A DNA stretch of 64,000 nucleotides, from contig MGJA01000012.1 in the NCBI GenBank assembly GCA_001794025.1, positions 8,455 to 72,454 on the forward strand, read 5' to 3'. Of this stretch, positions 5,359 to 43,171 are shown in pieces (within the stretch, counting starts at the first letter, position 1; each line of letters begins with the position of its first letter). Source of the DNA: Candidatus Yanofskybacteria bacterium RIFCSPHIGHO2_01_FULL_41_21 (lineage in GTDB: Bacteria > Patescibacteriota > Minisyncoccia > 2-02-FULL-40-12 > GWA2-44-9). The translations under genes and the position numbers were made by a program. Below the pieces are notes generated by a model that made no database searches, had not been told where the DNA came from, and saw only the letters and a program-made list of their open reading frames with translations.

Positions 5359-5756
5359 AGTTTTATAACTTGTCGGGCGCTCGACCAGTCGCCTTTGGCG
5401 ACCAAGGCCGTACGCTTTTGACCAATTTCTTCGTTAAATCCTGCGTTTACTCCTCACCATATGTTTATATGGCTCGTCGTAATACTCGGATTTTCCTTGA
5501 ACTTGGTCAAACCGACTGCGTTCTAAATTATTTGTCTTTTTCAATAGTTAACGACCAGAACTATTGTTTTCCTTGGTTATTTTAACCCTGCTTTCCAATT
5601 GTCTAGGTTTTCCGCGAAAATTGCAACCCCCCTGTTGATAATGCCCATATGCGGTCTAAAAAAAACAGGACCCATCGCGGGTATTGTTTTAAAAAAAATA
5701 AAACTAAAAGCAAGGTTAGTATTCCTGTAAAAATACCATAAAATCGGCTGGAGAAA

Positions 5757-5870
5757 CTGAAAACCTACTTTTTGACCCAGTAGCGGAAGGGGTCCCGCGA
5801 AGCGGGGAAACCGACGGTCCGCCAACTGGCGGATGGTTTCCCGGGTCTGGGGCAAATGAGCAGGTTTTCA
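5757..5870. repeat. Family A GC-rich palindromic multi-hairpin element, copy A1 (variant flanks CTGAAAACCT / AGGTTTTCAG)
   Basis: Core GACCCAGTAGCGGAAGGGGTCCCGCGAAGCGGGGAAACCGACGGTCCGCCAACTGGCGGATGGTTTCCCGGGTCTGGGG is shared with the 7583, 42909 and 59798 copies. Compensatory changes preserve the stems (GGAAACC/GGTTTCC versus GGAACC/GGTTCC; CCCGCGAAGCGGG versus CCCAGCGAAGCTGGG). Confidence 0.6.
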
Positions 5871-7405: not shown

Positions 7406-7582
7406 TGGTTGGTAGAGTTAGAAAAACCATTTTGGTACTTCTAGCTAATATTAAAGGAAAGTTAACTCTACTATACCTAAAAGTTTGGTTTTATGCAAAT
7501 TGGGTTGTTAACAGTCCATTTCGCCCGATTACCATTTTATTGCGGCTTCATTGCGAGAAGTCGCACAGTAATTTAATCTTAA

Positions 7583-7762
7583 GTCACTTGGGGGTATACT
7601 CTTAGACCCAGTAGCGGAAGGGGTCCCAGCGAAGCTGGGGGAACCGACGGTCCGCCAGCTGGCGGATGGTTCCCCGGGTCTGGGGATAAGAGTATGCCCC
7701 AAGTGACGTTGATACAATTTGAGGAGCAACTGAGTCGGGAGTTGGGTGGAGGAAGTGGAATC
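7583..7762. repeat. Family A element copy A2 with 22-bp TIRs (GTCACTTGGGGGTATACTCTTA ... TAAGAGTATGCCCCAAGTGAC) and about 55-nt conserved tail
   Basis: Near-identical core to A1 and A4. Flanking TIRs and the GTTGGGTGGAGG tail are seen directly. Lies between rny and gpmI. Confidence 0.6.
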
Positions 7763-11904: not shown

Positions 11905-12065
11905 CCAATTCGAGACAATCTAGACGTTACAGGAGTTGGTTGATATAATTAACGGTCAGCAGACCGATCAACCAACGAACTGCAATGCGAGTTTAGCTGA
12001 GGTGACGAAGGTAGCCCGAAGGGTACCAAGGAACCGGAGGCGTGTCGAGAATGGGTTACGACTCC
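11905..12065. repeat. Family B about 160-nt structured element, copy B1, immediately 3' of the 12072..13445 gene
   Basis: About 90% identical to 49908..50068. On the minus (gene-sense) strand it forms nested hairpins GUUGGUUGAU[CGGUC-UGCU-GACCG]...AUCAACCAAC and GGUACCC-UUCG-GGCUACC (UUCG tetraloop). Confidence 0.55.
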
Positions 12066-12071: not shown

Positions 12072-13445
12072 TTATTGAGACAGAGTTGCCAGAGATGAGG
12101 ATTGGTGTTCTTGGAGCCAGCGGAGTTTGACCAGATAGCCCTTGGTTTCGTCTTTGAGACCACCGGTCTTGGAAGTAAGGGCGTTAACCCAGTCCTGAAT
12201 ACCGCCAAGAATTGAGGCGGTGAGGGTCTTATAAACCCACCGAGGCGCGCCATTATAAGAAGAGGCCAAATATTCTTCCAACTTAGGATCATTAACAATT
12301 TCTTTACCATGAGCCAACATCAGACCTCTTAAATTCTCGTCATACAATAAGATGGCGGCCTTCATGGAATTTAAATGATCCGCAGCCCCAGTTTTAAAGT
12401 CCTTAATCAATTTGGCTGAAGGATAACTTTTTACAATATTGGCATAAGTACGGGGAGTAAATTGGAGCCAACCACAGGCGCTTGAACTATTGCAGGTGGC
12501 ATTAAAGGCCTGGTCTTGATTCGCCCCAATTATGACTTGAGCTCGTTCAATAGTATTCTGCGGGTCAATTTGAAATTCAGTAAGATCGGTTTGCTCTAGA
12601 AGTGGAATCCGACTAAAAAAATCGGAACGTGATTTAAAAACATCAATCACTAGCGTTCCGGAAATCGCGCGGGACTTAACATTAGCCACACGAAGGTCAT
12701 CAAAGGCCTTACTAATAACTGTGTTGGTGTAATCTATGCCCGATTTTACCAAATCGGATGAATGTAAATCTGGACTATACGGTGAATATAATTGATATTT
12801 TATAGTTCGTTGAGTGGAATAAACCGTCCTACCTTTTACTTTCTTAGCAACCGTAGTATCTGTTTCGTTTGGATAAACATTGGCAATAACCACACTATCC
12901 GTAGGAATATTGACTTTATAAGCGGTATTCCAGCCATTCCAAATAATTCCATTCGGACGTCGCAGAATATTAATATTAAATCCGGATGGAGCGATTAATT
13001 CTGCCCCACGTTTTATAATGGTTACAATTTTAATCTCGCCTGATGAAATATTCAAAATCGCCAGAGCAATCTCTTTTTCCGGTTCCTTGAAACTTTTTAC
13101 TGTCAGGGCCAATTTCCCTTTAACCGATGTGTAACGTGTTTCCGTGTAAGCGATAGGTTTATTCCCGACGGTTAAAGTTGTATTTCTTAAAAGTTCTTTG
13201 GCTTCTGTAATTTTTTGAGATACAGTCCAAACCGGTGTTGGAATAGGTGTTGCGGTTATAACAGGAGTCGGTGTAACTATAATTTGGCGAGGCGAAAATA
13301 GACCCATTAATATTGGAATATTTTGGGCATAAACATTAAAACTCCCCACAACAATAATAACGCCAACAATGAGGACGCCTAATAATAATTTTGTATTATA
13401 AATTTTGTTCAATTCTATTAGATAGCGCTTGTACTTTATTAGCAT
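12072..13445 (-). CDS. secreted/membrane-anchored protein with C-terminal lytic-transglycosylase-like (SLT-like) region
   Basis: N-terminal TM. C-terminal SSSACGWLQFTPRTY resembles the GxxGLMQxxPxT motif of the SLT domain. The catalytic Glu context is not evident. Confidence 0.5.
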   Translation of the reverse strand: MLIKYKRYLIELNKIYNTKLLLGVLIVGVIIVVGSFNVYAQNIPILMGLFSPRQIIVTPTPVITATPIPTPVWTVSQKITEAKELLRNTTLTVGNKPIAYTETRYTSVKGKLALTVKSFKEPEKEIALAILNISSGEIKIVTIIKRGAELIAPSGFNINILRRPNGIIWNGWNTAYKVNIPTDSVVIANVYPNETDTTVAKKVKGRTVYSTQRTIKYQLYSPYSPDLHSSDLVKSGIDYTNTVISKAFDDLRVANVKSRAISGTLVIDVFKSRSDFFSRIPLLEQTDLTEFQIDPQNTIERAQVIIGANQDQAFNATCNSSSACGWLQFTPRTYANIVKSYPSAKLIKDFKTGAADHLNSMKAAILLYDENLRGLMLAHGKEIVNDPKLEEYLASSYNGAPRWVYKTLTASILGGIQDWVNALTSKTGGLKDETKGYLVKLRWLQEHQSSSLATLSQ

Positions 13446-14736
13446 AATTTACACAATCAGCCCGAGTACTTTTAGAATTACCGCAATAATAGGCCTTGGA
13501 TGCGGCAATTTCGCCGGCTCTGGTTTTAGAATTGGCTCCACCACGAGAAAGTTTTGCCGCCGCCGCGATAAAAGCATCTTCTATATTCCAGGGATTTGCT
13601 AAGGGACGACCCGTAATTCTGGCAACCTCGTCTTTATAGCCCATCCAAGTTGAGGGAATAAACTGGGCCGGCCCCATTGCACCACCCCAACCATTACCTA
13701 TCGGACAAGACACAGCTGTCGTTTCCGGATCCATCCCTAATTCAGATGTAATTTTTAAAAATGGTTGGATATCGCGAGTAGGTTTCATAATAACTCTATA
13801 ACCCTTTGAGGGTGGATCGCCAGCCCGATTACATTTGCCGACATTTCGTCCTAACCCGGATTCAAGTTCAAGTTCAGCAATAAGAAATGCCGGGCGAATA
13901 CCGGTTGCAATTGCGGCCAGATTACCAAATTTAACAGCATCGTCAGCCGTCACGCCATTTTGCTGTAAGTAAAAAATCTCGGCTTTAATTTTTTCTATCT
14001 TAGATTGAGATTGACTTACTAATGTCTGAAATTTTGATTCTTGACCCTTTGTCTCTTTTAAAAGTTTGTCTTTTTGGGCCTTATTTTGATCAACACTTCT
14101 TTTATTAATTTCTTCCAGACCTTTCTGTTTTTCAAGATCGGTTCGTTTGTCTTCCAGTTCTTGCCCCTTTTCTTCAAGTGACACTTTGAGAGCTTGAATC
14201 CCATCTATGACCACCCTCAACTCATCTTGGGTTGTTTTAATACTATTTAAATCAGTGAAAAAATCTGAAAGCGCTTCGTGTTTGAGTAAAACAGTGGTCA
14301 ATGTCTCTTGATCGTTTTGATATAAAATTCTTAAATACTGTCCCAAGATAACCTGATTCTTGGCAATTTCTACTTCGGCTTCCTTAATTTTTTCTTGAGT
14401 GCTTTGAACTTCAGAATTTGTCTTGGCAATGGAGAGACCCAAGCTTTTTATTTCTAAGTTAAGTTGATTTATTTTGGCGTTTAATTTAGATACCTCGCTC
14501 TGAAGCGTCACTTTTGTGGGTTGAATCGCATCAATTTGTTGCTGATATTGTTCTATTTCTCGTTGAATTGCATCAATTTCAGAATATTTTTTATTTACGT
14601 CATCAGTAACAGCTGCTTGAGCCAAAAGACCGAAACACAACCCCGACATGATTATTGCCGAAAACCCGCCCAACCAGATGATTCTGGTCATTCGGGCAGG
14701 TACTAAAAACCCCCGATATTCTAATACTCGTTTCAT
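13396..14736 (-). CDS. coiled-coil protein with C-terminal lytic murein transglycosylase (SLT) domain
   Basis: ELESGLG ... GAMGPAQFIPSTW is a classic SLT catalytic motif. Long N-terminal coiled coil after a TM helix. The ORF-track start 14865 extends through Family C element C-b; the start is probably Met at 14736 (MKRVLEY) or 14691. Confidence 0.7.
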   Translation of the reverse strand: MKRVLEYRGFLVPARMTRIIWLGGFSAIIMSGLCFGLLAQAAVTDDVNKKYSEIDAIQREIEQYQQQIDAIQPTKVTLQSEVSKLNAKINQLNLEIKSLGLSIAKTNSEVQSTQEKIKEAEVEIAKNQVILGQYLRILYQNDQETLTTVLLKHEALSDFFTDLNSIKTTQDELRVVIDGIQALKVSLEEKGQELEDKRTDLEKQKGLEEINKRSVDQNKAQKDKLLKETKGQESKFQTLVSQSQSKIEKIKAEIFYLQQNGVTADDAVKFGNLAAIATGIRPAFLIAELELESGLGRNVGKCNRAGDPPSKGYRVIMKPTRDIQPFLKITSELGMDPETTAVSCPIGNGWGGAMGPAQFIPSTWMGYKDEVARITGRPLANPWNIEDAFIAAAAKLSRGGANSKTRAGEIAASKAYYCGNSKSTRADCVNYANKVQALSNRIEQNL

Positions 14737-14747
14737 CCCAGGTAGTA

Positions 14748-14872
14748 GAAATCCGACCTGCGCTTTGTTTTGCTTACTAAAACGCAAGAATAATATCTCT
14801 ATTTTATCTATTAAATGCCACAAATAGTGAAGGTTAAGCGCATGCAAAACATGTCGGATTTTCACTACCTGG
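14748..14872. mobile_element. Family C MITE-like element, long copy (C-b)
   Basis: TIRs CCAGGTAGTAGAAATCCGAC ... GTCGGATTTTCACTACCTGG. Sits 11 nt upstream of the likely start of the transglycosylase gene. Confidence 0.55.
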
Positions 14873-15008
14873 CATCCTATTCATTGTATCATATATCTAC
14901 GAGTCAAGGGATAATTAAATTACCTTTAAATATTGGTCTCAAAATGAATGGTTGATAATTATTTGGTTTTACCGTGTCAAAAAGTTATAATATATATAAC
15001 AATCCAGA

Positions 15009-17225
15009 ATGATAAAAGTCCAAAATAATCTCCGACGTTTTGTCTGTTTTCTTTTAGTTATCTTAGCATCTTTTATTTTTGTAAATTCGGTCTCAGCTGT
15101 CACTCTTGGAATTTCCGGAAATCGTTTTACTCTTGATGGCCAAGCCAAATTTTTGGTCTTAAGTGGTTATTGGGATGGCTTGGATGCTCCTAATCCATCA
15201 GCTGACCTTAATTATCTTAAATCTAAAGGGTTTGATGGTATTAGAATATTTCCTAATTTGTGGGATTATTGTGCTGGTTGTTCTTCTGAATTTACACCTG
15301 GCAACAACCCAGTTATTAAACCCGATGGAACCATAAACCAATCTAGATTAAATCAATTAATTTCAATTATAGACACGGCAAATAGTTTGGGAATGATTGT
15401 TGATGTAACATTTGCCAGAGAAACAATAGCAGGAAATTGCCAAGCTAGCGCGGGGAATCCTGTTATTTGTATCACAGAATTTAAAAATGGAGTTATATCC
15501 GTCGTTAATGCTCTTAAAAATAAAACTAATGTTTTTTACGATTTATCTAATGAATACGATCATCCAGCAATAGATGTCCCTAATGCTGATATAATAGACC
15601 TCAAAAATAGAATCCGAAGTAACGTGGGGACAAACATAATTCTCTCTGTTTCTAGTAGCCAACCCAGCGGCTCTGTAGCAATAAATAATGCCCGTTCTAT
15701 GGGTATGAATTTAGTAAGTGTTCACTGGGCTTCTGGAACAACAGAATTAAATACCAGCCTTTATCCTGGTTCAATAATTTCATCTTTGCCGACATATGTG
15801 GGAGAGCCATATAATACCCACTCTGTGTCTGGTTACACTTCAGCGGAACTTATAAATGGAGTGGTAGAAGCAAAGAAGGCCGGTATCGCCGCTTGGTTGT
15901 TCCATTCAGATGCCACTTTCTTATCAAATGGTGAATATCCAATTAGATTTCAAAGCAATGAACAAGGATTTGTAAATAGTTTTTTATCGGCTTTACAAAG
16001 TGTAACTTGGGGTGGGGGTGGGGGCGGGGGTGGGACGGTACCACCGCCAACCAGTGGGGCTTGCATAAATCCGGCACCGGCCACATCAACTGTTCCGGAC
16101 ATGAAATCGGTTGTCCAAGGGGTAGCAGCGGCTCATCCAAACTGGTTACAAGACGTGTGTAATAGTTATGATTTTATAGACGAAGTAGTAAGACAATTAA
16201 GGGCTGGCCCAGGCGGGACGAGATGGGCTTATGAAGCGAAGCGGGCCAACTTAAGTGATCCTTGGCAGGAAGGAATTTCTTATTACTACGGTTCAGGAAA
16301 CGCACCAACTCCAGGAACAATGAGTCAATATGAGGTCTTTGCAATTGATATCGTTCATCAATATTGCGGTGTTGCCGGCGGAGGCACAAATACTGCTGAT
16401 TGGAATGTTGCAGATTGGCCTTATCGCAGTCCAAACTTAGTAGAAGTCGCTTATCTCTATCCAAGAAACGCCGGTGGCTCTCTGCCTGCTCCCCAACTTT
16501 GTACGGGGCAACCCCCTCCCCAGCCGCCACCGCCGCCCACCGGTCCGCCGACAATAACCGGTATCAGTCCTCTAAGAGCGGCTATCGGTCAAACAGTAGA
16601 AATTTATGGCACGAATTTAGTTGAAGATATTAAATTAGAATTATCGGATGGAAGATTTTACACGGTAACAGGAGTAGTTGATTTTCAAAGAACAACTCTT
16701 AGTTTCACAGTCCCCGATGCTCCCGCCGGTTCCTACAAAATATCTATCACCGGACCAAGTGGTTCAGCTACCAGTCCTCAAAATTTAGAAGTAGTTGCTG
16801 GTGGTTCCGGCTTCCCCCCTCCCCTTAACCTAGGTGTGCCTTCAGAAGGTCTACCAACTGATTTAGGACAGCTTATTGAGGCAATATTCAGTTGGTCTCT
16901 TTCTTTGATTGGTTTAGTTATCTTTGTCCGTTTCTTCTATGCCGGATTCTTATGGTTTACGGCGGCGGGTAATACAAATAGGACGGGACAAGCAAAAGAT
17001 ATAATGAAAAACGCCATTTATGGCGCTTTGATTCTTTTCTCGGCTTGGTTGATTCTTAATACTATCAACCCTGATTTGGTGGGAGGGGTCTTTGATTTAC
17101 CGGGGCTATCGGGGACGGCACCAACAAGCGGGACAGGAGGAACAGGAACAGCGGTCACTTGTAACAATGGTGTTTGCAGTAATGGTTTTACTGGGCCTTG
17201 TCAGGCCCCAACTGACTGTCAATAA
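15009..17225 (+). CDS. large secreted multidomain protein: signal peptide, GH5-like glycoside hydrolase region, poly-Gly and poly-Pro linkers, IPT/TIG-like domain, C-terminal two-helix TrbC/VirB2-pilin-like module, Cys-rich tail
   Basis: Signal peptide FVCFLLVILASFIFVNSVSA. LSNEYDHP resembles the GH5 NEP acid/base motif. ITGISP...VEIYGTNL is IPT/TIG-like. The C-terminal 100 aa (LIEAIFSWSLSLIGLVIFVRFFYAGFLWFTAAGN...AKDIMKNAIYGALILFSAWLIL) has two hydrophobic helices separated by a short loop. Confidence 0.8.
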   Translation: MIKVQNNLRRFVCFLLVILASFIFVNSVSAVTLGISGNRFTLDGQAKFLVLSGYWDGLDAPNPSADLNYLKSKGFDGIRIFPNLWDYCAGCSSEFTPGNNPVIKPDGTINQSRLNQLISIIDTANSLGMIVDVTFARETIAGNCQASAGNPVICITEFKNGVISVVNALKNKTNVFYDLSNEYDHPAIDVPNADIIDLKNRIRSNVGTNIILSVSSSQPSGSVAINNARSMGMNLVSVHWASGTTELNTSLYPGSIISSLPTYVGEPYNTHSVSGYTSAELINGVVEAKKAGIAAWLFHSDATFLSNGEYPIRFQSNEQGFVNSFLSALQSVTWGGGGGGGGTVPPPTSGACINPAPATSTVPDMKSVVQGVAAAHPNWLQDVCNSYDFIDEVVRQLRAGPGGTRWAYEAKRANLSDPWQEGISYYYGSGNAPTPGTMSQYEVFAIDIVHQYCGVAGGGTNTADWNVADWPYRSPNLVEVAYLYPRNAGGSLPAPQLCTGQPPPQPPPPPTGPPTITGISPLRAAIGQTVEIYGTNLVEDIKLELSDGRFYTVTGVVDFQRTTLSFTVPDAPAGSYKISITGPSGSATSPQNLEVVAGGSGFPPPLNLGVPSEGLPTDLGQLIEAIFSWSLSLIGLVIFVRFFYAGFLWFTAAGNTNRTGQAKDIMKNAIYGALILFSAWLILNTINPDLVGGVFDLPGLSGTAPTSGTGGTGTAVTCNNGVCSNGFTGPCQAPTDCQ
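16803..17110 (+). repeat. duplicated about 308-nt C-terminal module (copy 1) shared with 19264..19571 at about 93-95% nucleotide identity
   Basis: Direct comparison of the two nucleotide stretches; they differ only at scattered positions. Confidence 0.8.
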
Positions 17226-17256
17226 AACACCTTAGAGAAAATAACAAAATAAGATA

Positions 17257-19587
17257 ATGGCAAATCGTATCCTAAAATTACTCTTAATAACGTTTCTTTT
17301 TATATTTCCCATACAATTAGTTTTTTCCAGTATTCCTCAATCTCTTCCTGCTCCGACTCATTCTATAATGTTCGGATATTATCATGTCGACTCACAATAC
17401 GGCGACTTTAAAGATGAAGTAAAGGACTACACAAACACCCAACTTATTCTTCAAGAAAGTTTTTTGAGAAGCGACCTAAATAATATCCAAGAATTTAATG
17501 ATGCTTTTGATGAGACGATAACCTTGGGACATAAAATTGTCTATGTCTTGGGGACGGACTGGAATCAAGGTCTTAATGCCGTTAAGCCCTATTGGAATAA
17601 CGTTGAGTTTATTTACTTAGCTGATGAGCCGAGTTGGGATAAAGCAACAACAGAGACCAATATTACTAATTTTAAAAATTTAGTAACCCAAGCCGGACTG
17701 GCTCAAAAACAGATAGCTATCAATTATACCCCCCAACAAATCCAAACTGGCACCAGTTATCAAGCCGTTAATCTAGACATCATCGGATTTGAAGCATATG
17801 TAGATCCGGCCAAGCAAGATGACCCCAATATCCTGACAATTTTAGAAGATCAGATAGATGCTTCCAAGCAAAAAATAGGCAATAAAAAAATGTTTATTGT
17901 TATTCAGGCCTATGACCGAAACGGTGTCTGGAAAAACATGACCTCTATTCAGGATATCCAAATTACCCCATACTTAAAATCTTACAATGATAGTAATGTC
18001 ATCGGCCTGTTTATGTTTTCTTATGCCCGATCGGGCGGAACGAGAGACAACCCGACCCTAAAAACAGCCCATCAATTAATCAGCGATACTTTGCTCGGAA
18101 AAGGACCCATTGAATCAACAATTACCGACGTCACTACAGGTTGGGGCGGTAGCTTGGCTTTTAATCCAACAAATAATACATGGATGGTTGTTAGTCACCA
18201 TCATACAATGAAAGATATATTTGCTCGTTTACTCGATAATAATGGTAACCCCTTAACCGTTATGACTACCGTTGACCAAGAACCTACATTTCTTACGGGC
18301 GGTCCAGAAGTGGCTTATTCTCCTGATATAAATAAATTCTTAATTGTCTGGTGGCAAGAAAATATTACAGACACTTCCGCGGACATTTATGGTCGTTTCA
18401 TGTCAGCTGACGGTGCTCTCTTGGGGAATGCCTTTAATCTTACCCCAAATGACTCTCGGGTTCCCTATCTCGCCGAAAGTTCAATAATGCAATACGATTC
18501 CCGCAATAAAAAATTTGTCTTTGCTTTTGAAAACAGGGCCCCAGGAAATGTGTCGGTCTATTTAAAAACGGTCGGCATAGACGGAACTGTCGGACCAACT
18601 TTGATGATAGCTGAAAATCCGCCGGATTTTTTGGGCGCACCATCATTAGCGATAAATGAAACAGGAAATGAATATTGCATAAGTTACCAAAATGCCGGCG
18701 CCAATCAACCCAATAAATTAGCCGCAGAATCAAGTAGTTTGGCTGTAAAAAGGATTGATGCCTCCACCATGCAAGTCGGACCTGAAACATTTGTTTCTAA
18801 CGATATGTACTACAACGGTGGTATCGTTTACAATTCACAAGAGGATAAATATTTTGCCACTTGGACCAACTACGCTTTAAGCACCGGACTTGCAAAAACT
18901 CTCAACTCCTGCGACGGTACAGACACTGATGATACTGAAGATATTGATATTTCTACTTCGGGAGTTATTTCTTATAACCCAAAATCAAATACTTATGCTC
19001 TGATTGCTCAAGATTGTTGTAGTGTACGCAACAACTACATTATTTTTGACACGTCTTTAAATGTCCTGGAACAAGGAACCGTGTTCACTGATTCCAAAAA
19101 ATCTGAAATAACAGGTGACCCCGAAGCTGGCGGTAATTTTGCTCCAGTAATCATGGCTAACACTAACAACGGGACATATGGTGCCACTTCCAGTATGGAT
19201 TATGCTACCACAAGATTTGCCTCCAATGTTGGTTCGACTGTTCTGCTTGGTAGAACATATAGCGGTTCCGGCTTCCCCCCTCCACTTAATCTGGGTGTAC
19301 CTTCAGAAGGTCTACCAACTGATTTAGGACAGCTTATTGAGGCAATATTCAGTTGGTCTCTTTCTTTGATTGGTTTAGTTATCTTTGTCCGTTTCTTCTA
19401 TGCCGGATTCTTATGGTTTACGGCAGCTGGTAATACATCAAATACAAGTAAAGCAAAGGATATAATGAAGAACGCCGTTTATGGCGCTTTGATTCTTTTC
19501 TCGGCTTGGTTGATTCTTAATACTATCAATCCTGACCTGGTGGGAGGGGGCTTTGATCTACCGGGATTGAGTGGTGGGATGCCTTAA
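17257..19587 (+). CDS. large secreted protein: signal peptide, glycoside-hydrolase-like region (IYLADEPSW), beta-rich repeat region, same C-terminal TrbC/VirB2-like two-helix module
   Basis: Signal peptide ILKLLLITFLFIFPIQLVFSS. C-terminal 100 aa nearly identical to the preceding gene. Confidence 0.8.
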   Translation: MANRILKLLLITFLFIFPIQLVFSSIPQSLPAPTHSIMFGYYHVDSQYGDFKDEVKDYTNTQLILQESFLRSDLNNIQEFNDAFDETITLGHKIVYVLGTDWNQGLNAVKPYWNNVEFIYLADEPSWDKATTETNITNFKNLVTQAGLAQKQIAINYTPQQIQTGTSYQAVNLDIIGFEAYVDPAKQDDPNILTILEDQIDASKQKIGNKKMFIVIQAYDRNGVWKNMTSIQDIQITPYLKSYNDSNVIGLFMFSYARSGGTRDNPTLKTAHQLISDTLLGKGPIESTITDVTTGWGGSLAFNPTNNTWMVVSHHHTMKDIFARLLDNNGNPLTVMTTVDQEPTFLTGGPEVAYSPDINKFLIVWWQENITDTSADIYGRFMSADGALLGNAFNLTPNDSRVPYLAESSIMQYDSRNKKFVFAFENRAPGNVSVYLKTVGIDGTVGPTLMIAENPPDFLGAPSLAINETGNEYCISYQNAGANQPNKLAAESSSLAVKRIDASTMQVGPETFVSNDMYYNGGIVYNSQEDKYFATWTNYALSTGLAKTLNSCDGTDTDDTEDIDISTSGVISYNPKSNTYALIAQDCCSVRNNYIIFDTSLNVLEQGTVFTDSKKSEITGDPEAGGNFAPVIMANTNNGTYGATSSMDYATTRFASNVGSTVLLGRTYSGSGFPPPLNLGVPSEGLPTDLGQLIEAIFSWSLSLIGLVIFVRFFYAGFLWFTAAGNTSNTSKAKDIMKNAVYGALILFSAWLILNTINPDLVGGGFDLPGLSGGMP
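19264..19571 (+). repeat. duplicated C-terminal module (copy 2)
   Basis: See 16803..17110. Confidence 0.8.
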
Positions 19588-20531
19588 TTTTGAAGTTTTT
19601 TCTTAAAGTCCTCTATCTCAACAACAGCAAGCGGGTCGGTGTTATTTGTTGTCGCCAATTCCAGAGCGGTCCAGTGAGCTATAATTACTGAAGAAATAAT
19701 TTTTTCAATCAAAGAAACACCAACAAGAGGTATCTTGACTACCAACATACCATGCGATTGGAATAATTTAGCGGTTAAATCCATCCGCTGACTGATACGA
19801 TTATCAATATCGTCTTGAAGAAATATAGAATGGAATCCGGCCGCCCAATCTCCTTGAAAGCCGGTAATTTCATTATGGTCTGCTTCGGGAAAACAATTGT
19901 TAAAAGCCGGCATCTTGGCGGTCTCATTTAAAATAATCTTCCAAATATACCCAAGTTCTTTTAAACTTTCTGATGTATAAATAAGGGGAATAGCCAAACC
20001 AATCTGGCGAGCAACTTGAGTACCTCCAGATTTTAACGCTTCAGCGTCAATATGTTGACATGGTGTCAATTCGGTAATATCAAAATCAATGAGAGTGGCT
20101 AATGCTATTAAATCATGAAAAACCATCATTCGTGGAGGCAAATCGCTGTGGGGTAACACGATATGAGGAACCTGGTTTTGATTGGCAATATTAATCAATT
20201 CTCCGCCAGTGGAAACAACTACTAGATTCAACCCATTTTCAATTGCTATTTTCGCCCCCGAGATTGGCTCGGTTGTATTTCCGGAATGAGAGTTTGTAAT
20301 AATAAGTGCCGAGGTAAGTACTTCTTCGTCAAATAATGGTAAATCATAATCGGAATGGATATGAATATCTAATTCCGGTTTCACCATATTTAAAATTCCG
20401 GTTGCTAACCGGGAACCGCCCATACCTAAAACGATAATTTTTTTGAACGGCCGAATCTTTTCTTTTCCGATAATTTCCGGTTTATATTCAAATTGTTTTG
20501 GAACCCCTAAAATTCCTTCTTCGTAGGTCAT
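19584..20531 (-). CDS. bifunctional phosphoglucose/phosphomannose isomerase (SIS domain, archaeal-type PGI/PMI)
   Basis: GMGGSRLATGILNMV and overall SIS-domain architecture. The ORF-track start 20561 runs through the Family D cassette; the true start is the cassette-supplied ATG at 20531 (MTYEEGILG). Confidence 0.75.
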   Translation of the reverse strand: MTYEEGILGVPKQFEYKPEIIGKEKIRPFKKIIVLGMGGSRLATGILNMVKPELDIHIHSDYDLPLFDEEVLTSALIITNSHSGNTTEPISGAKIAIENGLNLVVVSTGGELINIANQNQVPHIVLPHSDLPPRMMVFHDLIALATLIDFDITELTPCQHIDAEALKSGGTQVARQIGLAIPLIYTSESLKELGYIWKIILNETAKMPAFNNCFPEADHNEITGFQGDWAAGFHSIFLQDDIDNRISQRMDLTAKLFQSHGMLVVKIPLVGVSLIEKIISSVIIAHWTALELATTNNTDPLAVVEIEDFKKKLQN

Positions 20532-20638
20532 CCCGTTAGAAATTTTACGACCACCCACCATTTTGCGATGGTGGCTATGGTTAGTAATTTTAGTTAATAA
20601 TTTAATAAGATATTCCCGTAGGGTTAATTTCTAACGGG
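20529..20638 (-). mobile_element. Family D 112-nt promoter/leader/start-codon cassette, copy D1 (15-bp exact TIRs ATCCCGTTAGAAATT / AATTTCTAACGGGAT)
   Basis: Shared with 22202..22314 and 27780..27891. Read on the minus strand it has an entry hairpin, an AT-rich promoter-like stretch (the -10-like hexamer is poorly conserved in this copy), a conserved CCACCA-N8-UGGUGG leader hairpin and UUUCUAACGGG-ATG. It begins at the stop codon of the upstream gene and ends with the start codon of the downstream gene. Confidence 0.6.
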
Positions 20639-20639
20639 A

Positions 20640-21023
20640 TTATTGATTCAGTTTTGATTTGATTTCTTTGATATCGTTTCTAACTTCGTGAACTAAATCA
20701 TAGAGATGTTTAATATATTCATCTTCCTCACGTAAATCAATTTCTGTTTTTTCATCAATTCGTTTGTCGGCCTTGAGACCGGAGATAATTATATTTTCAC
20801 CAATAAAAAATGAGACGAATGTACCCGTCAAAAGCATAATAATAACACTTCCGACCAACCACCAACCAGGATGGATATGAGGGGCTAAATCCGCTAACTC
20901 CCAAACCGCTCGCCAGAATAAAACTATTGATACGCCACCAATTAATGCATAAGGCACTGGATGACGACTTAAGGCGTGCCGGGTTTTATCTTCTAAACGA
21001 TCAAAAAAAGAGAATAACTTCAT
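20640..21023 (-). CDS. hypothetical membrane protein
   Basis: 127 aa with two TM helices and a charged C-terminal helix. No family recognised. Confidence 0.5.
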   Translation of the reverse strand: MKLFSFFDRLEDKTRHALSRHPVPYALIGGVSIVLFWRAVWELADLAPHIHPGWWLVGSVIIMLLTGTFVSFFIGENIIISGLKADKRIDEKTEIDLREEDEYIKHLYDLVHEVRNDIKEIKSKLNQ

Positions 21024-21739: not shown

Positions 21740-22204
21740 CTACTTTACAGTAAGATTACCCTTCATACCCTGCTGGCGATGAGTGCCAATTGAACAATAA
21801 TATTCAAATGTCCCCACTTTATTGGCAACAAATTGGATGGTTTCTTGCTGACCACTTTGAAGAATTTTTGTGGCGGAATTAAACTCGTCAATTTTCCAAT
21901 CATGGGTACCCGATTCGTTTTTGAATATAATTACAACCGTATCTCCTTTGTTTACGGTTATTTGAGAAGGAGTGAAAGAAAATGGCTTACCGACAACAGT
22001 GAATGTCTTTATACTTGAGACCACGGTGGCAGTTGGAGAAGCTGAAGGAGAAACCGAAACGGTTGGAGAAACAGAGGGACTAACGGAAACTTCCGGAGAC
22101 GGACTACCGGTCGGATTGGCAACTTCTTTCGTTCCAATCTGGAACATATATGCTACCACTCCCAATAATATAACTATTACCACGAAAATGATTAATTTTT
22201 TCAT
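21740..22204 (-). CDS. cupredoxin (type-1 blue copper) domain protein with Ser/Pro-rich linker
   Basis: GTHDWKIDEF ... YYCSIGTHRQQGMKG supplies His, Cys, His and Met ligands in plastocyanin-like spacing. N-terminal TM anchor. The ORF-track N-terminus (MVCKISNG) is encoded by the Family D cassette; true start MKKLIIF at 22204. Confidence 0.7.
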   Translation of the reverse strand: MKKLIIFVVIVILLGVVAYMFQIGTKEVANPTGSPSPEVSVSPSVSPTVSVSPSASPTATVVSSIKTFTVVGKPFSFTPSQITVNKGDTVVIIFKNESGTHDWKIDEFNSATKILQSGQQETIQFVANKVGTFEYYCSIGTHRQQGMKGNLTVK

Positions 22205-22314
22205 CCCGTTAGAAATTTTACAAACCATCCACCATTTTGTAGTGGTGGAACTGGCAAGTAATCTTAATTAGTGATTTATTATAATATTCCCGTAGGGTTA
22301 ATTTCTAACGGGAT
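22202..22314 (-). mobile_element. Family D cassette, copy D2 (contains TATAAT -10-like hexamer)
   Basis: See 20529..20638. Supplies the ATG of the cupredoxin gene. Confidence 0.6.
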
Positions 22315-22362
22315 TTATAGTTTTATTGTATAATGGCTTAAGATTAATTTCAATAGAAGACA

Positions 22363-27335: not shown

Positions 27336-27782
27336 TTATTTATTTTTTCTAAAATATTTTTCTAACCCCCAATAATTACCGGCCCTGAAAACGGCTAGTA
27401 CAATCAAGACCGCAATGTAAATAATATGCTCATCAACAATAAACGAATTTAAACTTGGAAAACCCGGGTAAGGAAACTTGAGAATTGGAAGATAATACAA
27501 AACCATAAGTAAAACCCCGAGAGGAGCACTCCAGCGAACAAATATACCTAAAATTAACGAAGCCCCCAGTAATGTTAAGCCCCATTCATTCATAAAATTA
27601 GTAATTGGCAACATTCCTGGAGAAGCAAACCAACTAAATAATTCCGGAAATGTTTTGGCCCCCTGTAAAAATTTCTCTGCTGACCAGGCCGGATTTAATA
27701 CCTTAGTAATCCCCGCCCAGAAAAAAACCCAGCCCAGCCCGATTCGTAAAACAAATAATGAAATTCTTTGTAATTTATTCAT
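27336..27782 (-). CDS. DoxX-family membrane protein
   Basis: LFVLRIGLGWVFFWAGITK is the DoxX signature. Start codon is the terminal CAT of the Family D cassette. Confidence 0.7.
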   Translation of the reverse strand: MNKLQRISLFVLRIGLGWVFFWAGITKVLNPAWSAEKFLQGAKTFPELFSWFASPGMLPITNFMNEWGLTLLGASLILGIFVRWSAPLGVLLMVLYYLPILKFPYPGFPSLNSFIVDEHIIYIAVLIVLAVFRAGNYWGLEKYFRKNK

Positions 27783-27891
27783 CCCGTTAGAAATTCACAA
27801 ACCGTTCACCATTTTGTGGTGGTAGGACCGGCAAGCAAATTTAATTAGTAATTTATTATGATATTCCCGTAGGGTTAATTTCTAACGGGAT
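27780..27891 (-). mobile_element. Family D cassette, copy D3 (CATAAT -10-like)
   Basis: See 20529..20638. Confidence 0.6.
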
Positions 27892-27952
27892 TAATTTATT
27901 GCTTGCTATAATTATAATACTAACAAAAACCCGACACAAGCTAAAAAAGTGG

Positions 27953-34112: not shown

Positions 34113-35183
34113 TTACAAGGACATCACCGCGAGTTCCAGGGGTAGTTGAGGAATAGGAGAGAATTTTATTTGGCTTCGGGCTAAAGTAAACGTATTTATA
34201 ATTTTGATGAGTTTTTCGTTATCTATAGTATTAAGGGCAGAGAATTGTTGGTGAGCTTCGGGACCTTCAATGGAGGCCGAGAGGGTTGGATTTACCCGTG
34301 AAAGCAAAGCGCTTCGGGCGTAAGATATAAATTCCTTAGTAAAATGTTCCAAGTCCATGCCCGCATCATGAATGGTATGAATAAGGGCTACAGCCGAGGC
34401 CTTGTCGCCCGAAGCAAGAAATCCTAATAATTTAGGATGATAGGAAATAGGTATTAAACCCAAGACATCTGCCACTTCTTTTTCTCCAATTGGACCCGAA
34501 GGAATCATGCTTCGGATTTTGGTTAATGCCACTTCGGCGTCACGAAGCGCGCCATCGGATGATTTGGCAATCGCCAACAAGGCCAAGTCATCAATCTGAA
34601 TTTTTTCGGCTTGAGCGATGGATTTTAATTTAGTGACCATTTCGGCGGGAGTAATGCGTTTGAAATCAAAACGCTGGACGCGGGAAAGAACCGTCGCTAA
34701 AATTTTATGGGGTTCGGTTGTGGCGAGAATAAACACCACGTGAGCCGGCGGTTCTTCAAGAATTTTTAATAAGGCATTAAAAGAATCCTTAGTAAGCATA
34801 TGAACCTCGTCAATCAAAAAGACCTTATATCCGCCCGACGGCGCAGAGACCTGGGCCGATTCTTTGAGAGCACGAATTTCATCAATTCCGCGATTAGAAG
34901 CGGCATCTATTTCAATTAAATCCAACGAGGTGCCATTATTGACCGAGAGACAGGCCTCACATGTATTACAGGGTAGGATAGTCCCCTTCTTCCCAAAATC
35001 TGCGCAATTGAGCGCCTTCGCAAAGATTCTCGCTATTGTTGTCTTTCCTGTCCCTCGCGGGCCCGTAAATAAATAGGCCTGACCCACTCGGCCAGACGAA
35101 AGCGCCCCTTCAAGAGTTCTGACCACATGCTCTTGTCCTACTAATTGTGAGAATACTTGAGGTCGGTATTTTCTGTACAGCAT
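34113..35183 (-). CDS. dnaX: DNA polymerase III subunit gamma/tau (short form)
   Basis: MLYRKYRPQVFSQLVGQEHV, Walker A GPRGTGKTT, zinc module CNTCEAC, SRC motif. Confidence 0.9.
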   Translation of the reverse strand: MLYRKYRPQVFSQLVGQEHVVRTLEGALSSGRVGQAYLFTGPRGTGKTTIARIFAKALNCADFGKKGTILPCNTCEACLSVNNGTSLDLIEIDAASNRGIDEIRALKESAQVSAPSGGYKVFLIDEVHMLTKDSFNALLKILEEPPAHVVFILATTEPHKILATVLSRVQRFDFKRITPAEMVTKLKSIAQAEKIQIDDLALLAIAKSSDGALRDAEVALTKIRSMIPSGPIGEKEVADVLGLIPISYHPKLLGFLASGDKASAVALIHTIHDAGMDLEHFTKEFISYARSALLSRVNPTLSASIEGPEAHQQFSALNTIDNEKLIKIINTFTLARSQIKFSPIPQLPLELAVMSL

Positions 35184-36625: not shown

Positions 36626-39061
36626 TTATTTTGTTAATTTATTTTGATTGAATTTGGCTTTGATTTCGTCTTCAACTTCTTGGCGATGGCGGGCAAATTT
36701 GGAACGGGATAATTGCTTGAGGTACGCAGTCATCTCAGGATTGCCGGCGCCAAAGACCCGTTCGGTTTCCAATTTAATATTGAACGGTAAAGCGGTTTGA
36801 CCGCCGATAAGCAAATTAACATATGCGTTCAAATTATCAATGTTCATAATATCTTGGGCATTAAAAACGGGTTCAAATTTATTCTTCATAAACTCGGCAT
36901 CGTCGGGACCGATACGGAAGGAAGCAATTGAACCGACATTGCCGAAGACGGCGTCGCGAATCCCATCTTTTAATTGTTTGACGAACTGGTGGGCAATAAT
37001 CAAGTCCAAATGATATTTGCGGGCTTCGGACAGAATTGTGGAAATGCTGTCGGTGGTAAAGTTTTGGAATTCATCAATATACAAATACATGTCCTTACGG
37101 GCGGATTCGTCGGCAATATCAACCCGCGACAGCGCCGACATGAGAAGTTTGCCCACAATAATCATACCCAAAAGATTGGCGTTGAGGTCGCCGATGCGAC
37201 CTTTAGACAGATTGACGACCAAAATTTTCTGACTATCCATAACTTCTCGGAAATTGAATGAACTCTTTTGTTGATTGATAATCGGTCGGAGAAATTCATT
37301 AAAAACAAATGACGTAATCTTTGAGGTGATATACGGCGCCATACTGGCTAAACTTTGTTCACCTTGAGCTTTCTCGGCTTCAAGTTGCCAAAATTGAACA
37401 ACGAGCGGATTTGTTTCCCGAGTTAATTTGTCAGCCCGATAAGCGTCGTCCACTAACACGCGAGAAATATCCGCCAAGGTCGGCACTTCATGCGCGTAAT
37501 CATCCAACAAAAGTAAAGCTGAATTTTTGAAATATTTTTCAAACATCGGTCCGCCGGTTGTTTTTAAGTCGTACAATTTATCAAAAATCCCAAACAACTC
37601 ATCAATAACCATAGATTTTTGTTCGGGATGAGTCGGGTCAATTTCAAACATATTTAGACCCATGGGAAAATCAATATCACCGGGGTCAAAATAAATGACA
37701 TCTTCGGCCCGTTCGGGTGGAACGATTGAAAGGACGAATTCAGCAAAATCACCGTGAGGATCAATCACACAAACACCTTTACCATTCTCCACATCTTGTC
37801 TAAGCATGGATTTCATAAAGACGGTTTTGCCCGTACCCGTCTGTCCGATAACATACAAATGACGTCGGCGGTCGGCATCGGACATCCGAACCTCTTTTTC
37901 AATCCCCCGAAAAACACTTTTGCCAAGCACCACGCCTTCATTGGGAAGATTCAAGGGAGCGGGAGCGGATTTTGAATTGACAAATTTTACGCCCGCCGAA
38001 GTGGTGGAAATCGGAAAATGATATAAACTGGCGAGTTCTTCAGATGAAAGTAAGACCTTCTGACTTTCGTTAAACATTCGAAATGAAAAATTAAAAAGGA
38101 AAGAACGCAGATAGCGACCCGTCATTTTGTTAAGCGAAAATTCATTTTGATCAGTCGTTGAAAATTGAGCCAGCGCACCCGCCAAAATATCTAACAATTG
38201 ACTGGCCCGCGGTTCTGATTCAGCGGAGACAACCAATCGGATATTGGCATCAAACCATGGTTTGGATGCTTTCGTTTGAATACCTTTAATCACTTCTTCC
38301 TCAAAAGGCGTAACGACTTTGGGTGGTTGTTTGGCTAATTCTTCAGGAGTCGGTTCTTTGGGTGGATTCTTAGTCCGTTTTATGGCGTCTTTGAGTTGGT
38401 GGCCATGTTGCATTTGCCGAACCACTTTTTCCGCAAATTTACGTTGACCATCTTGATGAGATGGTCTGAATAAAATTTGAAGTGCGGCACCCTCTCCTTG
38501 ATGATTGATTTTAGAAAGACAAGCTAAAATTTCTCCCAGCGGATCGCTTTCTAATTTTTGATAGGTCTTGATAGGCAAGATTGAATCATTTTTCTGGGTG
38601 ACAGAAGCGCCTAGGGCCACACCTCCGGGATGAAAAACGGAATAATCCTGCACCGGTTCAATGTGGGCTTCGGGATACAGGCCGTGAATTTGTTTTTCAA
38701 AAATATCTTCAATGCTTCTGGGTACGGCCATATAGAATTGAATATCCTGGCCGATATGTCTCACGGCAATTTCTAAAACTAGATATGGCTCACCATATAT
38801 AAACTTGTTCCAACCCTTGGTGTGGATATTGGTAAAAGACCCGTATAACTGTTCCATGATGCCAATAAGTTCTTTTTCGGGACGTTGAGGAGCACCTTGA
38901 AAACCCGGCAATGTCGGTCGTGGAAGCGTAATTGAAAAAAGCGCCATATTCAGCGCCCGAGCGATTGAACCCTTAGAACGTAAAGAATTAAGCGTAACTA
39001 GCGCTGAAACAATAATCAAAACCAGAACGACACCATATACAATCAGAAGAAATATAGACAC
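36626..39061 (-). CDS. VirB4/TrbE/CagE-family type IV secretion ATPase-like protein
   Basis: 811 aa. N-terminal TM. Walker A GQTGTGKT at about residue 405, Walker B LYIDEFQNF, and downstream AHQ region. Placement of the NTPase domain in the C-terminal half is typical of VirB4. Confidence 0.65.
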   Translation of the reverse strand: MSIFLLIVYGVVLVLIIVSALVTLNSLRSKGSIARALNMALFSITLPRPTLPGFQGAPQRPEKELIGIMEQLYGSFTNIHTKGWNKFIYGEPYLVLEIAVRHIGQDIQFYMAVPRSIEDIFEKQIHGLYPEAHIEPVQDYSVFHPGGVALGASVTQKNDSILPIKTYQKLESDPLGEILACLSKINHQGEGAALQILFRPSHQDGQRKFAEKVVRQMQHGHQLKDAIKRTKNPPKEPTPEELAKQPPKVVTPFEEEVIKGIQTKASKPWFDANIRLVVSAESEPRASQLLDILAGALAQFSTTDQNEFSLNKMTGRYLRSFLFNFSFRMFNESQKVLLSSEELASLYHFPISTTSAGVKFVNSKSAPAPLNLPNEGVVLGKSVFRGIEKEVRMSDADRRRHLYVIGQTGTGKTVFMKSMLRQDVENGKGVCVIDPHGDFAEFVLSIVPPERAEDVIYFDPGDIDFPMGLNMFEIDPTHPEQKSMVIDELFGIFDKLYDLKTTGGPMFEKYFKNSALLLLDDYAHEVPTLADISRVLVDDAYRADKLTRETNPLVVQFWQLEAEKAQGEQSLASMAPYITSKITSFVFNEFLRPIINQQKSSFNFREVMDSQKILVVNLSKGRIGDLNANLLGMIIVGKLLMSALSRVDIADESARKDMYLYIDEFQNFTTDSISTILSEARKYHLDLIIAHQFVKQLKDGIRDAVFGNVGSIASFRIGPDDAEFMKNKFEPVFNAQDIMNIDNLNAYVNLLIGGQTALPFNIKLETERVFGAGNPEMTAYLKQLSRSKFARHRQEVEDEIKAKFNQNKLTK

Positions 39062-43127: not shown

Positions 43128-43171
43128 TTAAAATTAAATTACTCTCTTTTTTGGGTATTTTTTTAAATAAA

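Follow-up and report, generated by a model that had tools for sequence, protein, structure and literature searches.

Two adjacent genes, here called A and B, lie on the plus strand of the window (the whole 64-kb stretch of DNA that was analyzed) and are separated by a 31-nt spacer (Table 1). Gene A encodes, in order, a signal peptide, a GH5-like barrel, a mobile domain without a known family, an IPT/TIG domain, a PF18895 hairpin, and a Cys-rich tail; gene B encodes a signal peptide, an alpha/beta barrel, a 7-bladed beta-propeller, a linker, and a PF18895 pilin hairpin. The locus is also present, at 99.9% identity over 22 kb, on an independent metagenome contig, where gene A is identical. Because independent assemblies show the same architecture, which is also seen at 40 to 60% identity, an assembly or frameshift artifact was rejected. 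Exact-protein look-ups returned no contig for A or for the protein P0014 and one contig for P0040. Promoter and terminator sites in positions 14700-19800 were no more numerous than in shuffled sequence.

Table 1. Genes and domains of the A/B locus, with coordinates counted from the first letter of the window
Feature	Coordinates	Strand	Basis
Second neighbor, 457-aa signal-anchored protein	12072..13445	-	Homologues in same position in 9 related loci
SLT_2/MltB-like neighbor, divergent	13396..14865	-	PF13406 26.3 bits, cutoff 24.3; weak MltB matches
Gene A	15009..17225	+	738-aa ORF; Pfam PF18895, TIG, near-threshold Cellulase; same architecture in orthologues
A predicted Sec signal peptide (aa 1-30)	15009..15098	+	Hydrophobic segment aa 11-29; putative cleavage between ...VNSVSA and VT
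A GH5-like (beta/alpha)8 catalytic domain (aa ~31-335)	15099..16013	+	Near-cutoff PF00150; NE/GE motifs
A domain without Pfam family (aa ~345-500)	16041..16508	+	Matches in L002 and L003 proteins
A IPT/TIG Ig-like domain (aa 514-592)	16548..16784	+	PF01833 30.3 bits, cutoff 20.9
A shared pilin module (aa 599-705)	16803..17123	+	99/107 identical to B; PF18895 aa 619-686; AF2 hairpin
A 33-residue tail with four Cys, after helix 2, plus stop codon	17124..17225	+	Sequence
Gene B	17257..19587	+	776-aa ORF; Pfam; AF2 model pLDDT 78; PF18895-bearing orthologues
B alpha/beta barrel (aa 38-280)	17368..18096	+	AF2 alternating strand/helix, pLDDT about 90
B 7-bladed beta-propeller (aa 296-650)	18142..19206	+	AF2 prediction
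B shared pilin module (aa 670-776), to stop codon	19264..19587	+	PF18895 aa 690-757; AF2 helices

The first-pass annotation of this DNA, made from the sequence alone, had called gene A GH5-like. The motifs and the orthologues agree with that description, while A itself scores 21.3 bits against PF00150 (Cellulase), just under the Pfam cutoff of 23.5. PF00150 is recorded for the A orthologues P0042-P0046 and P0052, several orthologues score above the cutoff, and the GH5-type NE (DLSNEY) and GE (YVGEP) catalytic motifs are kept in all 10 of the 10 aligned GH5-type sequences. The domain that follows matches aa 57-135 of a 677-aa protein in locus L002 and aa 711-837 of an 838-aa protein in locus L003; the same mobile domain is N-terminal in the former, central in A, and placed past the hairpin in the latter. 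Pfam has no family for it, nor for the post-hairpin domains of the homologues. The IPT/TIG domain, also proposed at first reading, scores above its Pfam cutoff and is confirmed. The Cys-rich tail of A is probably extracellular; in P0173, P0180, and P0188, too, the hairpin is succeeded by a Cys-rich tail or by an entire domain.

In the predicted barrel of B, the D of ADEPSW and the E of GFEAY are invariant. Pfam gives only weak single-member matches to GH clan-A families, from which no hydrolase family is assignable, and a search of PDB sequences found no match; the domain may be termed glycoside-hydrolase-like, with no family assigned. After the propeller, AF2 predicts a disordered linker and then the helical hairpin.

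The sole significant BLASTP match between A and B joins residues 599-705 of A to residues 670-776 of B (99/107 identical, E 3e-60), and nothing else aligns; outside this module the two proteins are unrelated. At the nucleotide level, 16803..17110 and 19264..19571 are identical at 280 of 308 ungapped positions (90.9%), and BLASTN gives 92.5% over 16803..17104; the near-identity reported earlier is therefore real, but the value given for it (93 to 95%) was slightly too high. The likeness has a sharp 5′ boundary at 16803/19264 and includes a 125-nt perfect run at 16839-16963. Eighteen of the codon differences are synonymous and 8 are non-synonymous, the latter clustering in the inter-helix loop. 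As read along A, the module consists of a Pro/Gly linker, a GLPTDLGQLI motif, helix 1, a basic loop (NTNRTGQAKD), helix 2, and an NPDLV..LPGL motif. It had been placed at the C-terminal end of both proteins, which is correct for B but not for A, where the Cys-containing tail follows. Searches of all six-frame ORFs of the window with phmmer and the module HMM found no copy other than those in A and B.

The modules cluster by genome and not by enzyme, and in a Yanofskybacteria genome the same gene pair has been homogenized as well. The two modules of L002 share 84.8% nucleotide identity with an identical core (99% protein identity over 85 core positions) and are only 57 to 61% identical to those of the window. 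This grouping and the homogenization outside the window support recurrent gene conversion and module shuffling, which had been postulated as alternatives from A and B, and indicate that conversion between adjacent genes accounts for the near-identity of the two copies and has recurred in other lineages. Gene conversion between adjacent repeats does not require a functional reason.

With 38.7 bits in A and 39.1 bits in B, both copies exceed the gathering score of PF18895 (T4SS_pilin; 26.6 bits), and each spans positions 5-71 of the 71-position profile, so that the module belongs to a pilin family and the earlier comparison with pilins is supported in this respect. Two C-terminal hydrophobic segments are seen in the hydropathy profiles of both proteins. 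AF2 folds the module alone into a helical hairpin (helices 19-53 and 58-88), and the hairpin helices of full-length B are placed at 690-721 and 727-757. The suggestion that the module might be a novel anchor falls away, since it is an already curated Pfam family and a module profile search reached about 89,000 protein clusters. Nor is it restricted to A and B, a restriction that the first-pass annotation had listed as refuting its reading: besides the matches of the profile search, PF18895 is carried by both A-type (43 to 57% identity) and B-type (39 to 62%) orthologues in other Patescibacteria. A search of the NCBIfam models gave only a suggestive match below threshold, to the “Mbov_0395 pilin-like” family of a Mycoplasma ICE (E 4-6e-3). 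By tblastn, the module has no match among 72,556 plasmids, and its identification as a plasmid conjugation pilin was rejected on that basis.

The closest database relatives of the module are stand-alone pilins of 108 to 148 aa (57 to 69% identity), and an A-type enzyme shares 86% identity with a 129-aa free pilin across the core of its module. Among 401 complete module-bearing ORFs from 83 loci, 39 are at least 400 aa long. Tandem concatemers of 2 to 17 modules occur, as do giant proteins in which an N-terminal module is followed by TIG, Big_5, and fn3 repeats. Judged from these sequences, the fusion of PF18895 hairpins to large surface proteins is both old and recurrent.

The more specific likeness to TrbC/VirB2 proposed in the first-pass annotation was recovered in weak profile links and not in a fold match to solved pilins. 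The PF04956 HMM did not match A or B at E values up to 1; a fused homologue of 1921 aa (L073) gave 22.6 bits (E 1.2e-4), under the cutoff of 27.9. In hhalign, the module aligned to Agrobacterium-type VirB2 with 26.8% probability when 11 sequences were used and with 61.6% probability (E 7.8e-5, 40 columns, matching register) when 202 were used, and the reversed-sequence control gave 0.5%. When the module model was compared with PDB structures by Foldseek, the Aeropyrum pernix conjugative pilus (8dfu) came first, but at a non-significant E of 1.6 and among generic helical hairpins; a two-helix hairpin is too simple a fold for such a comparison to decide pilin kinship. A profile search of PDB sequences retrieved no pilin, just ABC-transporter TM noise at E values above 0.1.

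The protein encoded divergently from A has a TM segment, an extended coiled coil, and, at its C-terminus, an SLT_2/MltB-like lytic transglycosylase domain; it has no relatives in the PDB. Its gene adjoins a PF18895 gene in L001-L004, L010, and L012-L016, and a VirB1-like role is possible. The slot beside it is occupied in relatives by a 129-aa pilin (L016) or by proteins of 248, 263, 783, 838, or 919 aa. Its own neighbor, the 457-aa protein, has no match in Pfam, NCBIfam, or the PDB. The surroundings of A and B are otherwise housekeeping genes: the window contains no free-standing pilin and no T4SS cluster, and virB3, virB4, and virB6 were not recognized in it. Many pilin arrays and fused genes elsewhere likewise have no recognizable T4SS gene within 10 kb.

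A “VirB4-like ATPase” had been reported 17 kb away. For a VirB4 assignment we required full-length matches to TIGR00929 and PF03135 plus T4SS neighbor genes. The ORF in question (36626..39061) matches TraD/TrwB/VirB4/HerA models around the P-loop only and far under all family cutoffs (TIGR00929, 15.5 bits against a cutoff of 643; SXT_TraD, 46 against 366; PDB TrwB, E 1e-3), and it is flanked by genes for soluble coiled-coil proteins, GtrA, a 23S-IVP protein, and dnaX. In another genome, too, a dnaX-like gene keeps synteny with this ORF. Since the matches are confined to the P-loop, no T4SS genes are adjacent, and the dnaX synteny recurs, the VirB4 label was dropped and a link between this ATPase and A/B was rejected for want of evidence.

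The explanation we favor, with moderate confidence, is that A and B are modular VirB2-like pilins, that is, large extracellular proteins of enzyme type that have a PF18895 hairpin as a covalent part. What the analysis shows of the two genes is the family they belong to, how their domains are arranged, where the module occurs, their synteny, and their concerted evolution. Both N-termini are hydrophobic and signal-peptide-like, the inter-helix loop is net positive with acidic flanks, and in homologues a folded domain or a Cys-rich tail may stand before the hairpin or after it. The conserved NE and GE motifs speak for enzyme competence of A. The N-terminal signal peptide would direct the chain through Sec; helix 1 would then halt transfer, the short basic loop would remain cytoplasmic, and helix 2 would cross back. 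Both ends of the hairpin would come to lie outside, which is the topology of membrane VirB2/TraA propilins and fits the presence of extra domains before or after the hairpin in homologues. By this prediction, the GH5 and TIG domains of A and the barrel and propeller of B would be exposed, held on the cell surface by the Pro/Gly linker, where they may bind or cleave glycans, with the adjacent lytic transglycosylase perhaps clearing a way through the wall. The hairpin of A and B and the pilins that stand alone in related genomes are one and the same unit; the hairpin probably keeps their protein-protein contacts instead of serving as a merely passive anchor. The enzymatic activities, the transglycosylase role, and any interaction with other pilins are inferred. 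Weighing against this explanation are the missing free pilin and T4SS cluster in the window, the weak sequence and fold links to solved VirB2/TraA-type pilins, a barrel in B that fits no hydrolase family, and the fact that adjacent repeats may convert each other irrespective of function.

A stronger version, which we regard as doubtful, has a T4SS extracting the hairpins of A and B and co-polymerizing them with small PF18895 pilins, so that the enzymes decorate or cap a VirB2-type pilus and face the host envelope. In F- and T-pili, the pilin termini point outwards, so that terminal fusions are geometrically possible. The modules of the enzymes are as conserved as free pilins, including the extracellular flanks GLPTDLGQLI and NPDLV..LPGL; fused members sit within tandem arrays of small pilins elsewhere (494 and 754 aa in L021; 769 aa in L059); and the conserved lytic transglycosylase neighbor recalls VirB1 beside VirB2 in virB operons. 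Against this stand the missing free pilin and T4SS cluster in the window and the bulk of the 65-kDa ectodomain, which is probably too big to pack on every subunit and would allow sparse incorporation only. Moreover, no pilus has been seen so far for any Patescibacteria T4SS (PMC12857230).

Conversely, exaptation might have turned the hairpin into a passive membrane anchor with two passes that has lost its pilin and T4SS function, with the identity of A and B reflecting neutral gene conversion. The housekeeping surroundings, the distance (>10 kb) of many arrays and fused genes from recognizable T4SS genes, and the variety of unrelated ectodomains, which a generic anchor would be expected to carry, agree with such a role. 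For anchoring, however, hydrophobicity would suffice, whereas the module keeps 57 to 69% identity to free pilins across proteins with unrelated ectodomains, along with the conserved extracellular flanks; free pilins, which have nothing to anchor, hold the same syntenic slot, and the concatemers point to module-module packing. We therefore consider a pure anchor improbable.

VirB2/TraA propilins are processed at both ends. By analogy with their long leaders, or with sortase-type C-terminal signals, cleavage before or within the GLPTDL region could be imagined to free the enzyme into the medium or to split a mature pilin from its very long leader, and LPTDLG, a hydrophobic helix, and basic residues superficially resemble a three-part sortase signal; this is highly improbable, as no hydrophobic leader for signal peptidase lies directly 5′ of the module and a second helix with conserved C-terminal motifs or whole domains follows. 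A sortase (LPXTG) signal as such was rejected: LPTDLG lacks T-G, two helices and conserved sequence come after it, and the motif is not kept across the family, where GLGSKDL, GLSGTDP, and DKPTNF take its place.

Read as modular VirB2-like pilins, A and B share several features with canonical TrbC/VirB2/TraA proteins (PF04956; T-pilus and F-pilus): a predicted signal peptide, a hairpin whose two hydrophobic helices are linked by a basic loop, a predicted topology with both termini outside, and an adjacent lytic transglycosylase. They differ from these in having no PF04956 match and no virB3 or virB4 alongside, and in carrying large passenger domains, which the canonical pilins do not. Modular T4P pilins that combine a pilin module with a functional one, such as a lectin or vWA domain, are known, e.g., Streptococcus sanguinis PilB/PilC. 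A and B resemble them in that a small polymerizing or anchoring pilin module is grafted onto an adhesive or enzymatic one; the T4P pilins, however, have an unrelated fold, a class III signal peptide, a single N-terminal helix, and assembly by a PilB/PilC-type ATPase, in contrast to the predicted Sec-type signal peptides and two-helix hairpin of A and B. Sortase substrates with LPXTG/LPXTA motifs reportedly anchor monoderm carbohydrases at the C-terminus, e.g., in Bacillus cellulosilyticus, and there too one conserved C-terminal module is common to unrelated secreted glycoside hydrolases of a genome. Unlike these substrates, A and B have no LPXTG and two helices, not one, and their module, unlike a sortase signal, also occurs free-standing, at N-termini, and in concatemers.

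The nearest relatives are the VirB2-like pilins of the same phylum, with which A and B share PF18895, a two-helix hairpin with a short basic loop, and 57 to 86% identity. It is accepted that PF18895 pilins are the VirB2-like components of the T4SS in Patescibacteria, and a six-gene array of them is essential in Southlakia epibionticum (PMC10633639, PMC12102498, PMC12857230); the family name “T4SS_pilin” is itself inferred, since no experiment has shown a PF18895 protein forming a pilus. The members described so far are stand-alone proteins of about 110 to 160 aa in arrays of 2 to 11 genes, often near virB4, whose identity within arrays averages 25% and reaches 54% at most (PMC12102498). In contrast, A and B are proteins of 738 and 776 aa with enzyme-type ectodomains and 93%-identical modules, are present in just two copies instead of a tandem array of small pilins, and adjoin a lytic transglycosylase. 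We found no paper describing fusions of PF18895 pilins to large enzyme-type proteins.

The pilin unit is thought to be central to the life of Patescibacteria on other cells: both the T4SS and its array of VirB2-like pilins are essential to epibiotic growth (PMC10633639, PMC12857230). This unit has recurrently been joined to enzymes of glycoside-hydrolase type, to beta-propellers, and to giant Ig-repeat proteins; it is homogenized within genomes and paired with a lytic transglycosylase. Such fusions supply concrete, testable candidates for the molecules that the pilin system would display to the host surface. It is conceivable, although we think it unlikely, that PF18895 hairpins act as a general handle for decorated VirB2-type pili, in which glycan-cleaving enzymes like A and B and giant Ig-repeat adhesins with an N-terminal module co-assemble with small pilins. 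If so, the essential T4SS filament of epibionts would be an enzyme- and adhesin-bearing organelle of attack or attachment, and decorated pili would explain the adhesin that the literature reports as undetected in Patescibacteria systems. If the fusions are anchors only, they would still constitute a widespread surface-tethering device in a phylum whose cell-surface biology is little known. In automated annotation, fused PF18895 proteins are labeled just “pilin” or “hypothetical.”

Genes A and B, two same-strand neighbors separated by 31 nt (see the table), are real open reading frames with the boundaries first assigned to them, and they are not an assembly artefact, because an independent metagenome contig (ENA ERZ28563625, ANAN16-1 scaffold_4159) is 99.9% identical to the window over 22 kb. 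Their common module (residues 599 to 705 of A and 670 to 776 of B) is identical at 99 of 107 positions (BLASTP, E 3e-60), and BLASTP finds no further significant alignment between the two proteins. The near-identity of the module DNA noted in the first-pass annotation holds, at values slightly below its 93 to 95%: 280/308 nt (90.9%, ungapped) for 16803..17110 versus 19264..19571, and 92.5% over 16803..17104 by BLASTN. Similarity sets in abruptly at 16803/19264 and includes a perfect 125-nt run (16839-16963); the differences comprise 18 synonymous and 8 non-synonymous codons, the latter clustered in the inter-helix loop. In the clade of the window modules, which includes the homologous proteins P0154, P0173, and P0188, a charged Arg stands midway along hydrophobic helix 1 (FVRFFYAGF in both A and B), a position taken by Met or Gln in other members.

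Profile scores of 38.7 (A) and 39.1 (B) bits, both above the gathering score of 26.6, establish both modules as members of PF18895 (T4SS_pilin), so that the earlier option of a novel membrane anchor gives way to an already curated family. Modeled on its own, the module is a two-helix hairpin (pLDDT 67.7). The evidence best supports a reading of A and B as modular VirB2-like pilins, and this reading is probable: a pilin hairpin, functionally the same unit as the free (stand-alone) pilins, would tether ecto-enzymes exported through Sec, and gene conversion would have homogenized the two modules. This grading applies to the umbrella reading; three more specific models are graded separately below. 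The enzyme-fused form is new here, and the pilin module itself was known. In the literature, PF18895/VirB2-like pilins are small proteins whose genes form arrays of 2 to 11, at an identity averaging 25% (PMC12102498), and they are essential in Southlakia epibionticum (PMC10633639, PMC12102498, PMC12857230). No PrgB-type adhesin has been detected in the Patescibacteria T4SS systems described in the literature, and in the literature searched, which omits most subscription-journal papers, we found no description of enzyme- or adhesin-fused PF18895 members.

The assignment of A as GH5-like with an IPT/TIG domain stands in part. The IPT/TIG domain scores above the Pfam cutoff and the GH5 (Cellulase) match falls just under it; PF00150 is on record for several A orthologues, and the GH5-type NE and GE catalytic motifs are kept in all 10 GH5-type sequences aligned. 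For B, the Pfam search found no domain other than the pilin module. Its AlphaFold model (pLDDT 78) places an alpha/beta barrel at residues 38-280 and a beta-propeller at 296-650, followed after a disordered linker by a helical hairpin at 690-757; the barrel could not be placed in any family, with no PDB sequence match and, among family members, no more than scattered weak matches to GH clan A. Orthologues of A (43 to 57% ectodomain identity) and B (39 to 62%) occur in other Patescibacteria, nearly all with PF18895, and NCBI gives the name "pilin" to a B-type protein of 660 aa.

Far from being confined to two paralogues, the module is thus found in orthologues, and its profile retrieved 89,052 cluster representatives at E <= 1e-3 (30,287 at E <= 1e-10) from 1.84 billion proteins. 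Its nearest relatives in a 5.8-billion-protein set are stand-alone pilins of 108 to 148 aa (57 to 69% identity) with signal peptides of their own. We counted 401 complete module-bearing ORFs in 83 related loci (297 shorter than 200 aa, 65 of 200 to 400 aa, and 39 of at least 400 aa), proportions that are not representative because the loci are the best 80 matches to the module profile plus three orthologue loci (L002-L004). Of the 39 long ORFs, 11 have the module close to the C-terminus and 25 close to the N-terminus. The latter type includes gene pairs of ~630-890 aa and 1,900-3,467 aa with TIG, Big_5, and fn3 repeats. Each protein of these conserved pairs has an adhesin-like layout of signal peptide, PF18895 module, and then repeats; besides the two pairs in the table, similar ones occur in L025, L027, L029, L039, L068, L079, L081, and L083. 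The fused pilin architecture is widespread and experimentally tractable.

Sequence comparison supports both of the processes offered earlier as alternatives, gene conversion between neighbors and a shuffling of domains about a module that stays constant. In L002 (a Candidatus Yanofskybacteria MAG, GCA_016185505.1), the A-type and B-type genes are also adjacent, and their modules are homogenized (84.8% DNA identity with an identical core; 99% protein identity over 85 core positions), yet their identity to the window modules is just 57 to 61%. Among 29 proteins compared, modules group by lineage, not by ectodomain type, with free pilins interleaved among fused ones; for instance, the module of one A-type enzyme shares 86% identity with a free pilin of 129 aa. 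P0154, whose module is 86 to 89% identical to those of the window, joins the GH5 domain of A to a PD40-type propeller region (WWPSLSPDGKYVAYGN) also found in the B-type 716-aa protein of L002.

The proposed resemblance to a pilin largely holds through PF18895, and homology to classical TrbC/VirB2 is plausible but weakly shown. Neither A nor B matches PF04956 in the Pfam search, and the module profile found no pilin among PDB sequences. Foldseek ranked an archaeal conjugative pilus first for the module model, though only at E 1.6. An hhalign comparison with annotated VirB2 proteins gave 26.8% probability with a thin profile and 61.6% (E 7.8e-5, 40 columns, matching register) with 202 module sequences, versus 0.5% for reversed VirB2. 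One fused homologue (1921 aa, L073) matches both PF18895 and, under the cutoff, PF04956 (E 1.2e-4). VirB2 homology of PF18895 pilins has been asserted from structure-based annotation (PMC10633639, PMC12102498).

The N-termini of A and B resemble signal peptides. The loop NTNRTGQAKD carries a net positive charge and has acidic flanks, which by the positive-inside rule predicts a cytoplasmic loop. The central domain of A, which has no Pfam match, changes place among orthologues, from N-terminal in L002 to post-hairpin in L003. In other homologues helix 2 is followed by a tail rich in Cys or by an entire domain, and in A 33 further residues, four of them Cys, extend beyond the module. The occurrence of domains on both sides of the hairpin is consistent with an arrangement, like that of VirB2/TraA propilins, in which the two ends would lie outside.

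Locations of the features discussed (window coordinates unless a locus is named)
Feature	Location	Strand	Description
Gene A	15009..17225	+	ORF, 738 aa
Gene B	17257..19587	+	ORF, 776 aa
Mobile domain, A	16041-16508 (aa 345-500)		central
Mobile domain, orthologue	L002:7941-9974 (aa 57-135)		N-terminal
Mobile domain, orthologue	L003:10001-12517 (aa 711-837)		after hairpin
Helix-1 Arg	16914-16916 (A); 19375-19377 (B)
457-aa protein	12072-13445	-	signal-anchored, of unknown family; ~10 related loci
SLT_2 gene	13396-14865	-	TM, coiled coil, SLT_2 lytic transglycosylase; ~10 related loci
dnaX-like gene	34113-35183		ATPase neighbor
23S rRNA-IVP protein	35208-35558		ATPase neighbor
GtrA-like gene	35598-36269	-	membrane protein
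ATPase	36626-39061	-	811 aa
PMT_2-type genes	39569-41083; 41083-42897	+	adjacent glycosyltransferases
Adhesin-like pairs	L023:7959-20092; L073:9848-18330
Repeat family 1	5766-5852; 7553-7725; 42927-43143; 59768-59955
Repeat family 2	20528-20648; 22193-22315; 27771-27900		just upstream of three minus-strand genes
Repeat family 3	11905-12064; 49908-50066
Repeat family 4	5412-5531; 56702-56822

A block in which the 457-aa protein and SLT_2 genes diverge from PF18895 protein gene(s) and PGI is kept in L001-L004, L010, and L012-L016. As called, the first two ORFs share 50 nt. The lytic transglycosylase beside a pilin gene recalls classical virB operons, in which virB1 stands beside virB2, an adjacency also seen in plasmid records taken as controls. 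Incorporation of the A and B hairpins into a T4SS pilus is nevertheless unlikely: the 64-kb window contains neither a T4SS cluster nor a free pilin, subunits could not pack if each bore a large passenger domain, and no pilus has so far been observed in the phylum (PMC12857230). Elsewhere the window is given over to housekeeping functions (aminoacyl-tRNA synthetases, MreBC, PBP2, MurG, RRF, dnaX, and copper-handling genes). The ATPase 17 kb away, earlier called VirB4-like, carries a TM segment at its N-terminus, and its centrally placed P-loop belongs to the FtsK/HerA/T4CP/VirB4 type. We dropped it as a T4SS link, since its matches to TraD/TrwB/VirB4/HerA models surround the P-loop only and fall far under every cutoff, no T4SS genes are among its neighbors, and its synteny with a dnaX-like gene recurs in L079.

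A purely passive anchor is still less probable. The extracellular flanks of the hairpin are conserved, and the slot beside the SLT_2 gene is filled by a 129-aa free pilin in L016 and by PF18895 proteins of 248, 263, 783, 838, and 919 aa in other loci. Module concatemers also speak against it: 2 to 17 modules occur within one protein, without internal signal peptides and with up to 34 predicted TM helices (P0054, 1775 aa, 17 modules; P0055, 552 aa, 6; P0076, 220 aa, 2), which suggests side-by-side packing of the modules. That A and B are proteolytically processed precursors is very improbable.

The PMT_2 and GtrA-like genes flank the ATPase region, a position that points to a possible role in surface glycosylation. 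Four families of short intergenic repeats (60-160 nt, 79 to 95% identity), some inverted, are scattered over the window, and none matched an Rfam family. Many TPA_asm MAGs with typical Patescibacteria pilin arrays (L021, L024, L025, and others) are titled "uncultured Gammaproteobacteria bacterium," the L016 record is titled Pseudomonadota, and one partial pilin is ascribed to Loigolactobacillus; these records are probably mislabeled or contaminated.
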